From NCBI GenBank assembly GCA_963767985.1, contig CAVYGE010000005.1, positions 188,453 through 252,452 of the forward strand: a stretch of 64,000 bases of DNA. The letters run 5' to 3'. The position numbers were made by a program, and so were the translations under genes. Of the stretch, positions 13,621 to 15,273 are shown in pieces. Position 1 is the stretch's first letter. Every line of letters starts with the position of its first letter. Under the pieces are notes generated by a model. That model ran no database searches. It was not told the DNA's origin and worked only from the letters and a program-made list of their open reading frames with translations. This stretch comes from an uncultured Chloroflexia bacterium. Its GTDB lineage: Bacteria > Chloroflexota > Limnocylindria > QHBO01.

Positions 13621-14484
13621 ATGACCGCGTCGTCTGCCGGCCGACCGGGCGCGCCCCCGCGCGGGACGCTCCATCTCGTCGCGGTGCCCATCGGCAATCC
13701 GGACGACCTGTCGCCGCGCGCCCGCGACGTCCTGCGCTCCGTGGGGGTCGTCGCGGCCGAGGACACGCGGCACTTCGCCACGCTCGCTCGACACCACGAC
13801 ATTGCCACGCGCTCGGTCAGCTACCACGACCACAACGAGGATGCCCGCGCGCGGGAGCTCGTGCGTCGCCTCGAGGCGGGGGAGGACGTCGCCCTGGTCA
13901 GCGATGCCGGCACGCCACTCGTCAGCGACCCGGGCTTCCGGTTGGTGCGGGCTGCCATCGAGGCCGGGATCACGGTCACCAGCCTGCCGGGCCCATCGGC
14001 CATCACGACCGCGCTGGCCGCGTCCGGCCTGCCGCCGCACCCGTTTCGCTTCCTGGGCTTTCTGCCGCGCACCGCCGCGGCTCGCCGCGCGGCGCTCGAT
14101 CGCCTGGTGGACGAGCCGGCGACCCTGATCGCGTTCGAGGCACCTCGGCGCATCGATGCAGCCCTGGCCGATGCGCTCGATGTCCTGGGCGATCGAGCGG
14201 CGTGCCTGGCGCGCAGCATCACCAAGCCGCACGAGCGCTACCAGCGCGGACGCCTGTCCGAGCTGCTCAATGCGATTCGCACCGAGGGCGAGGTGCGAGG
14301 CGAGTGCACCCTGCTGATCGCCGGTGCCGATCCCGGAGCCGCAAGCCTCCACGACGCGGAAGCCGATGCGACACTCCTCCTTGCAGCCGGGGCGCCGCCG
14401 CGCGCGGTGCAGGACCTGCTGGTCAGCCACGGCATGAGCCGGCGGGAGGCGTACGCCCTCGTGCTCCGGCTCCGGAAGCGATGA
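13621..14484 (+). CDS. rsmI: 16S rRNA (cytidine1402-2'-O)-methyltransferase
   Basis: LVAVPIGNPDDLSPRA, AAEDTR, LVSDAGTPLVSDPG, PGPSA, FLGFLP, ITKPHE. Confidence 0.95.
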   Translation: MTASSAGRPGAPPRGTLHLVAVPIGNPDDLSPRARDVLRSVGVVAAEDTRHFATLARHHDIATRSVSYHDHNEDARARELVRRLEAGEDVALVSDAGTPLVSDPGFRLVRAAIEAGITVTSLPGPSAITTALAASGLPPHPFRFLGFLPRTAAARRAALDRLVDEPATLIAFEAPRRIDAALADALDVLGDRAACLARSITKPHERYQRGRLSELLNAIRTEGEVRGECTLLIAGADPGAASLHDAEADATLLLAAGAPPRAVQDLLVSHGMSRREAYALVLRLRKR

Positions 14485-15273
14485 GCGCCGAGGTGGTCGA
14501 GCGCGTGCTGCGCTCGGCACGCTACCGAGACGTGGACCCGTCGATGCTGGCGAGGGTGGCGGCCGAGGAGCAGCCTCGTGCCCGGAACGTCGACGACGCC
14601 GTCAAGCGCGTGAAGCGTCGCCTCCATCAGGCAGTGGGCGCGTTTCGCGGGACCGAGCGGGCGGATGTCATGGCCGCGGCATGGGACGGCGATCTCGATG
14701 ACGCGACGTTCCGGAGTGCCTGCGTCGACGCCCTGCGGGCCCATGCCTCGACGCGCGAGCGCCTCGGTGCCATCGAGCAGCTCTACCCATCGATCTGGGC
14801 GGTGACCGGGGTTCCGCGTTGCGTCCTGGATCTCGGGTGCGGGCTGAATCCCGTGACGCTGCCATGGATGGGCCTGTCGTCCGACGCCCTGTACCTGGCG
14901 TCCGATGTCGATCGTCGGCCGCTCCGAACGGTCGCGGCATTCCTCGAGCTGGTCGGGCAGCCGCACCGCGTCGAGGTCCGCGACCTCGTCGCCGATCCAC
15001 CCGACGACTCGGGCGGACGTCGCCCTCCTCTTCAAGCTCGTGACCACGCTCGATCGCCAGGACCCGGACGCAGCCGAGCGTCTCGTGGCCGCACTGCGCG
15101 TGCGGCATGCCGTCGTCAGCTTCCCGGTCCGATCGCTCGCCGGGCGTGGCAGGGGCATGGAGCGCACCTATCGCGCCCGACTCGAGAGACTCGCGTCGGG
15201 ACCGCGGGTCCGCGACGTCGTCGAGGTCCCGGTGCCCGGGGAGCTGCTGGCGGTGATGACGCTCGATGCCTGA
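14481..15273 (+). CDS. Rmt/ArmA/Sgm (FmrO family) 16S rRNA m7G1405 methyltransferase-like protein (frameshift near 15012)
   Basis: KRRLHQAVGAF, HASTRERL, VLDLGCGLNP, ALLFKL, VVSFPVRSLAGRGRGM, all characteristic of the FmrO family; overlaps rsmI and tgt. Confidence 0.85.

Follow-up and report, generated by a model that had tools for sequence, protein, structure and literature searches.

What the 16S rRNA methyltransferases that act on G1405 and defeat nearly all clinical aminoglycosides do in nature, and where they come from, is the question addressed by a locus in a 64,000-nucleotide stretch of DNA (the window) from an uncultured member of Candidatus Limnocylindria (Chloroflexota). At positions 14481-15273 of its forward strand lies a gene that comparison with family profiles confirmed as encoding an FmrO-family methyltransferase of the type that makes N7-methylated G1405 (m7G1405); in the assembly it stands in two frames. 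It is placed between rsmI and tgt2, the latter a divergent paralogue of Tgt. We consider it likely that the organism carries an intact fmrO of ~263 codons encoding a functional, intrinsic m7G1405 methyltransferase, with target and resistance phenotype predicted from homology. To the question of origin the locus adds a chromosomal, vertically inherited lineage that occupies a fixed site, where it adjoins genes for a C1402 methyltransferase and a dedicated paralogue of Tgt and where no antibiotic pathway was found nearby.

Family, fold and functional residues of FmrO

Both parts of the gene matched the FmrO profile PF07091, for which the cut-off is 27 bits. The first 177 residues from the ATG at 14481 aligned to profile positions 1-172 (119.7 bits) and the second frame to positions 171-236 (57.8 bits), together covering positions 1-236 of a profile of 255. 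On NF000466, the generic Rmt model of NCBIfam, the two parts scored 133.9 and 68.4 bits. A first-pass annotation, made from the sequence alone, had drawn attention to FmrO-family motifs, and all of these are present (HASTRERL, DLGCGLNP, LFKL and SFPVRSLAGRGRGM). Compared with an intact orthologue of 263 residues (P0003), the first part is 83% identical and the second matches at 80 of 85 residues. Public data hold more than 1000 homologues of 263-267 residues, many of them labelled '16S rRNA (guanine(1405)-N(7))-methyltransferase'.

Fold and residue comparisons were run on P0003, with residue roles taken as defined for RmtC. Residues 5-255 of P0003 aligned with Sgm (E 7e-42), and RmtF, RmtC, RmtB and ArmA could be aligned as well. 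An AlphaFold model of the protein had a mean predicted local distance difference test score (pLDDT) of 91.9, and its 16 best matches in the Protein Data Bank (PDB) were all m7G1405 methyltransferases. Superposed on Sgm, the model gave a template modelling (TM) score of 0.88-0.90 and a root-mean-square deviation of 2.3 A, while the folds ranked after these 16 scored below 0.55. P0003 is thereby predicted to have the two-domain fold of Sgm, RmtB and RmtC, in which a helical N1/N2 portion is joined to a Rossmann domain.

The residues that bind S-adenosylmethionine (SAM) in RmtC (R111, D160, D188 and Q212) are conserved, and the corresponding motifs HASTRER, ASDVD, RDL and TLDRQ occur in the window protein. 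Identity extends to the residues that dock the enzyme or position G1405 (Y21, H54, K204, R211, R241 and M245 in RmtC numbering). Three other RmtC positions carry conservative replacements: K20 by Arg, R50 by Lys and K236 by Arg. Lys236 has been reported as a universal Lys, and the window enzyme has Arg at the equivalent position. Across 31 homologues from several phyla, Y15, H49, R94, D142, D168 and K185 (P0003 numbering) were invariant. Separately, a sub-clade of FmrO proteins that includes one from the metagenomic contig L043 (P0246, P0253 and P0260) has RGY or RRY in place of the conserved G-M loop motif, and these proteins may have changed function.

The interrupted reading frame

As assembled, fmrO is not one uninterrupted frame: one extra base lies near 15005-15015. 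The first-pass annotation had suspected an extra base near 15012, and alignment with two intact relatives (L024 and L023) bore this out, placing a one-base insertion at ~15008-15014. The source is a metagenome-assembled genome (MAG) of a soil/freshwater Chloroflexota bacterium, with 2.75 Mb in 7 contigs and a completeness of 84%. To survey frame changes, intact open reading frames of eight related genomes were translated and aligned to the window with tblastn. Compared with these orthologues, the window changes frame at least 12 times between 3.4 and 24 kb (~21 kb), about once per 2 kb. High-scoring segment pairs (HSPs) of fmrO orthologues changed frame at 15005..15015, and in tgt2 the HSPs of all relatives compared switched at 15415..15425; rsmI is intact relative to its orthologues. 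Most other genomes of the genus have fmrO uninterrupted, and several other assemblies of few contigs have it split.

Over the 85 codons after the shift, comparison with L024 gave 15 synonymous and 5 non-synonymous differences, corresponding to a non-synonymous rate (dN) of 0.028, a synonymous rate (dS) of 0.24 and a dN/dS of 0.12. Before the shift dN/dS was 0.24, which indicates weaker constraint there than after it, and the native stop is retained. Since frameshifts pervade the region, orthologues are intact, the change is a single base added in a G run and purifying selection acts downstream of it, the fmrO frameshift very probably reflects a base wrongly inserted during error-prone long-read assembly, and we infer that the gene is intact in vivo.

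The deposited assembly does show both frames broken, as it would if fmrO (and tgt2) were fresh pseudogenes in this strain. We regard this as very unlikely, because the frameshifts recur in many unrelated conserved genes, because the sequence downstream of the shift shows no decay and because fmrO has been retained intact across the genus. Programmed +1 frameshifting in fmrO was also considered and rejected: like one-base indels interrupt many unrelated neighbours, and relatives do not share the site. With an assembly so rich in indels, any finding of a 'pseudogene' or a 'frameshift' in this genome needs support from reads, and the 'broken' fmrO serves as a warning about indel-rich long-read MAGs in general.

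Relatives and inheritance of fmrO

The first-pass annotation had proposed a phylogeny with the known enzymes. When 152 family members were placed in a tree, the sequences from Limnocylindria were monophyletic (support 98) and grouped with the Sgm clade (Shimodaira-Hasegawa-like approximate likelihood-ratio test, SH-aLRT, 93), with ArmA/RmtC/RmtE and RmtB/RmtF elsewhere. Among characterised enzymes, the producer enzyme Sgm is the nearest relative. Identities of FmrO from the window clade were 38% to RmtF, 33% to RmtB, 31% to RmtE, 30% to RmtC and 27% to ArmA. Sgm, which confers sisomicin-gentamicin resistance on Micromonospora zionensis (PDB 3LCU/3LCV), was the best match among solved structures in both sequence and structure. 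With Sgm and other producer-type FmrO proteins the window enzyme shares the two-domain architecture, the SAM site, the G1405-handling residues and a major branch of the tree; unlike sgm, the window gene lies outside an antibiotic cluster and is flanked by rsmI and a Tgt paralogue, and its product is ~34-40% identical to Sgm. The Pfam family, the fold and the RmtC-defined functional residues are likewise shared with ArmA and RmtA-H, from which the window gene differs in being chromosomal, vertically inherited and in another clade.

That the closest solved relative is a producer enzyme, and that the clade groups with it, would fit a self-resistance gene of an antibiotic producer or a mobile resistance gene acquired recently. 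This we regard as extremely unlikely. No biosynthetic genes were found near fmrO, which is not in an aminoglycoside cluster of the Sgm, GrmA or KgmB type, and the genes scanned from 8.5 to 26 kb included neither a transposase nor an integrase; the first-pass annotation, which had reported neither a mobile element nor an aminoglycoside cluster nearby, was right on both counts. It was also right about host-like composition: the guanine plus cytosine (GC) fraction is 0.71-0.73 within fmrO and 0.69-0.74 in the flanks. The genome measures 2.7 Mb, the position of the gene is fixed across six genera, and the Limnocylindria clade is monophyletic. A search of plasmids for close copies of Limnocylindria fmrO returned none above 38% identity, and there is thus no evidence that the Limnocylindria clade itself has been mobilised.

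Among sampled genomes of the genus, fmrO was present in 23 of 24 in one survey and in 26 of 26 in another, and its median pairwise dN/dS there is 0.25. All six FmrO-positive genera share the gene order argS-FTCD-rsmI-fmrO-tgt2-SIS-hutU. In a closely related genus without FmrO (G043), whose RsmI is 73% identical, rsmI abuts hutU, and fmrO and tgt2 are both missing. Two TGT genes were present in all seven FmrO-positive Limnocylindria genomes tested and one in each of the four genomes tested that belong to the same family and lack FmrO. The layout in G043 and these copy numbers together indicate that fmrO and tgt2 entered the locus behind rsmI and are inherited together as a pair. The locus is better named a conserved rsmI-fmrO-tgt2 module, clade-restricted in Limnocylindria. 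In G043 the SIS gene is found on the opposite side of rsmI, which indicates a local rearrangement at the insertion site.

The stop codon of rsmI and the start codon of fmrO overlap by four bases (ATGA, 14481-14484), and the ATG of tgt2 at 15266 overlaps the end of fmrO by eight bases, with an equivalent overlap in intact relatives. On the reading that fmrO encodes a functional m7G1405 methyltransferase, it would be the middle gene of a translationally coupled rsmI-fmrO-tgt2 unit. The helical N-terminal domain of FmrO would dock on the assembled 30S subunit, and the enzyme would flip G1405 out of helix 44 and methylate it at N7. Ribosomes modified constitutively in this way would be insensitive to 4,6-disubstituted deoxystreptamine aminoglycosides, whether as a by-product or as the purpose. 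A single gain of the fmrO-tgt2 pair probably took place in an ancestor shared by a set of Limnocylindria genera, and purifying selection has since maintained it.

Several observations weigh against this reading. First, fmrO occurs in only 6 of the 53 genera of the class, all of one family, and since the module is missing from the other 47 it cannot strictly be called housekeeping. The first-pass annotation had spoken of a housekeeping operon, a description that suits rsmI, which is joined tail-to-head with fmrO, and does not suit the clade-restricted fmrO-tgt2 pair. Second, six intact members of the clade scored 212-227 bits on NF000466, below its cut-off of 250, and at most 129 bits on any of the named families ArmA and RmtA-H (cut-offs 500-550), which places the protein in the FmrO family outside the curated resistance families; of the earlier label 'ArmA/Rmt-type', the FmrO/Rmt-type assignment by PF07091 stood and membership in ArmA or RmtA-H did not. 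Third, no sequence of fmrO from the same species was found, the best homologue being 83% identical. Lastly, a plain model in which FmrO methylates G1405 leaves unexplained why fmrO is coupled to a second Tgt with an altered pocket.

The partner gene tgt2 and the surroundings of the locus

The pairing extends well beyond Limnocylindria. A scan of GTDB species genomes gave 556 relatives, and loci were counted in the best 80 of these 556. They came from the Chloroflexota classes Anaerolineae, Chloroflexia, Ktedonobacteria, Ardenticatenia, Caldilineae and Dehalococcoidia, and from Armatimonadota, Planctomycetota, Acidobacteriota, Myxococcota and others, with Chloroflexus islandicus and Thermanaerothrix daxensis among the cultured carriers. 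A Tgt2-type gene lay on the same strand within 400 bp of the FmrO gene in 50 of the 80 loci (43 upstream, 7 downstream) and within 2 kb in 6 further ones; 8 of the remaining loci had too little flank, and about a quarter of the loci with enough flank were without Tgt2. In 21 of the 80, rsmI was found within 1.5 kb. The window locus has both features of the pairing, a same-strand neighbour with Tgt motifs of the FxPDAT and GGWPL type and co-inheritance with it.

Fused proteins were also found (among P0250, P0152 and P0148), one joining TGT to FmrO (628 residues) and one joining FmrO to a TP_methylase/RsmI-type domain (551 residues). A further protein of 907 residues that combines SMC_N/AAA with FmrO may be a fusion created by gene calling. 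On the metagenomic contig L043 (658-4638), queF, queC, queD, queE, fmrO and an RsmI-like gene follow one another in one direction, and another metagenomic homologue has an anti-sigma gene on one side of fmrO and a TGT gene on the other. A homologue from Phycisphaerales (L042) has no Tgt neighbour, and the FmrO-Tgt2 pairing is therefore not universal.

Tgt2-type genes also stand beside two clinical resistance genes. Those next to rmtG and rmtB2 on plasmids encode proteins 47-51% identical to the window Tgt2, with FFPDAT and GGWPL, whereas canonical Tgt is 33-37% identical. The rmtG cassette of pKP13f reads rsmH - tgt - rmtG - truncated methyltransferase - ISVsa3, and the rmtB2 region of the Providencia plasmid p12100-NDM reads tgt - metallophosphoesterase - rmtB2. 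As in the rmtG cassette, a C1402 methyltransferase gene in the window adjoins the Tgt2-type and Rmt genes. The plasmids differ from the window in order, with tgt before rmt where the window has fmrO before tgt2, and in setting: their copies lie on segments flanked by insertion sequences (IS) in Enterobacterales, and the window copy at a stable chromosomal site. The pKP13f paper (PMC3904158) records, with no further comment, a 'putative tRNA ribosyltransferase' upstream of rmtG. Full-text literature searches found no paper that discusses a pairing of FmrO with Tgt, and as far as we found the rsmI/rsmH-Tgt2-FmrO module is undescribed; the gene itself adds a new member to a family already known.

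The FmrO-Tgt2 pair, usually as tgt2-fmrO and often with rsmI or rsmH, is a widespread chromosomal module of Chloroflexota and other phyla, and at least two clinical rmt genes stand in this setting as well. The Limnocylindria locus, the pairing across Chloroflexota and the pairing beside rmtG and rmtB2 together argue that G1405 methyltransferases have a native role in ribosome modification in many environmental bacteria, and that clinical rmt genes were lifted out of such Tgt2-FmrO modules. The possibility of a resistance reservoir, raised in the first-pass annotation, gains indirect support from the tgt-like/rmt arrangement that flanks rmtG and rmtB2; no plasmid gene, however, is closer than 38% identity to this clade.

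With the Tgt proteins of E. coli and Z. mobilis (TIGR00430) Tgt2 shares the fold family, the catalytic aspartates of DSGGFQ and FDC and the CxCxxC...H zinc site, but it is 33-37% identical to them, has GGWPLD in place of the GGLSVGE loop and FLPDAT in place of FMPVGT, and carries an insert of ~15 residues after the FDC motif. The loop of the preQ1 pocket, GGL(A/S)VGE in canonical enzymes, is GGWPLDAD in the window protein. The same genome encodes a canonical Tgt (C6:785350-786405) that scored 469 bits on the Pfam TGT profile and to which Tgt2 is 37% identical; across FmrO-positive genomes the canonical copy scored about 470-490 bits and the fmrO-linked copy about 300-330. Intact Tgt2 orthologues reached 303.9 and 292.5 bits on TIGR00430, under its equivalog cut-off of 306.75. 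In a tree, 62 FmrO-adjacent Tgt2 proteins were separated from 8 canonical Tgt proteins with 100% support. Throughout the Tgt2 clade DSGGFQ, FD(C/S) and CxCxxC...H are kept, while F(L/F/M)PDAT stands for FMPVGT and GGWPL(D/E) for GGLSVGE.

The task of this co-inherited, pocket-altered Tgt is a testable question raised by the locus. Three roles are possible: a tRNA modification suited to an altered decoding centre, action on helix 44 together with FmrO, or a linkage that is regulatory only. The second would make FmrO and Tgt2 a two-step pathway in which plain m7G1405 is not the end product. For example, N7-methylation turns the guanine into a good leaving group, which a Tgt-like enzyme might then swap in helix 44 for guanine, another purine or a deazapurine; alternatively, the pair would act on another RNA. 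We judge such a pathway unlikely, with a real minority chance of being correct. In its favour are the adjacency in 50 of the 80 loci, spread over many classes of Chloroflexota and over Armatimonadota, Planctomycetota and Acidobacteriota, the two fusions of FmrO with TGT and with an RsmI-type protein, and the joint gain or loss of fmrO and tgt2 in Limnocylindria, where Tgt2 is extra to a canonical Tgt. The separate, fully supported Tgt2 clade points the same way, as do its rebuilt base pocket behind an unchanged catalytic Asp and zinc site, the FmrO homologue behind queF-queC-queD-queE, and the other partners of FmrO (RsmI, and RsmH on pKP13f), which act on C1402, three nucleotides away.

Against it, Rmt enzymes from cassettes of this kind are known to confer resistance, and work on RmtB, RmtC and ArmA has established that m7G1405 is stable in E. 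coli in the absence of Tgt2. To our knowledge, transglycosylation of rRNA has never been observed. Unrelated genes for modification of the translation apparatus commonly cluster, and a substantial share of FmrO loci, as counted above, lack a Tgt2 neighbour. The donor is a further difficulty. A tblastn search of the window's genome with QueC, QueD, QueE and QueF from L043 found nothing, and QueC (PF06508) was absent from all 12 Limnocylindria genomes tested, in which only weak matches (~20 bits, covering profile positions 1-61) appeared; an endogenous 7-deazaguanine donor is therefore lacking in this lineage. All 12 carry a canonical tgt, and the lineage probably salvages a queuosine precursor. 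Because the Que genes were not found, Tgt2 in this lineage cannot depend on home-made 7-deazaguanine, and a link of Tgt2 to endogenous 7-deazaguanine synthesis here was ruled out.

More specifically, Tgt2 might be not a tRNA enzyme but a transglycosylase that works with FmrO at the 30S decoding centre, for instance in a methylation-primed exchange at G1405, a proposal we hold to be speculative and improbable. A cationic m7G would fit well in the rebuilt Tgt2 pocket, which has gained a Trp and acidic residues. If the proposal is true, the plain m7G1405 resistance of pathogens would be what remains after half of a two-enzyme rRNA-editing pathway was mobilised. The reading we prefer is still that of FmrO as an intrinsic m7G1405 methyltransferase with Tgt2 as its co-inherited neighbour.

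Table 1. Positions in the window of the rsmI-fmrO-tgt2 genes, their frame-change sites, flanking genes and other frame switches.
Feature	Position	Strand	Evidence or content
rsmI (16S rRNA C1402 2'-O-methyltransferase)	13621..14484	+	TIGR00096 213.7 bits (cut-off 167.9); PF00590 123.9 bits
fmrO piece 1	14481..15011	+	N-terminal 30S-docking domain and first half of Rossmann domain (HASTRER, DLGCGLNP, ASDVD, RDL)
fmrO frame-change site	15005..15015	+	one extra base in short G run ~15008-15014; single 1-base gap in L024 and L023
fmrO piece 2, second frame	15013..15273	+	LLFKL (RmtC K204 equivalent), TLDRQ, FPVRSLAGRGRGM loop; TGA stop 15271-15273
tgt2 piece 1 (FLPDAT)	15266..15420	+	PF01702 positions 8-57, 32.5 bits
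tgt2 frame-change site	15415..15425	+	one extra base in C/G run; DNA alignment with L024 and L023
tgt2 piece 2	15423..16352	+	PF01702 positions 56-337, 287.6 bits; DSGGFQ, LDDC, GGWPLDAD, FDC, CDCPLC...H
Histidine-utilisation genes (formiminotransferase, hutU, hutH) and SIS-domain gene	12639-13600, 16376-19236, 21989-23506	-	surround the RNA-modification trio
Frame switch in gene	3418-4448		tblastn against intact orthologues
Frame switch in gene	4297-5691		tblastn against intact orthologues
Two frame switches, metallo-beta-lactamase-fold gene	8495-9300		tblastn against intact orthologues
Frame switch in gene	9278-10661		tblastn against intact orthologues
Three frame switches, SIS-domain gene	16376-17512		tblastn against intact orthologues
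Frame switch in hutU	near 18281		tblastn against intact orthologues

Regulatory elements were also sought around the module (Table 1). Screening 12000-17600 against Rfam for riboswitches, of the preQ1 type or any other, gave no match even with E up to 1, and scans of 13200-16700 for sigma-70 promoters and intrinsic terminators found none, a result that is uninformative for this phylum. The genes scanned between 8.5 and 26 kb comprised argS, the formiminotransferase gene, rsmI, the tgt-like gene, the SIS gene, hutU, an ECF sigma factor gene, hutH, and genes for PAP2, VTT and ABC ATPase proteins.

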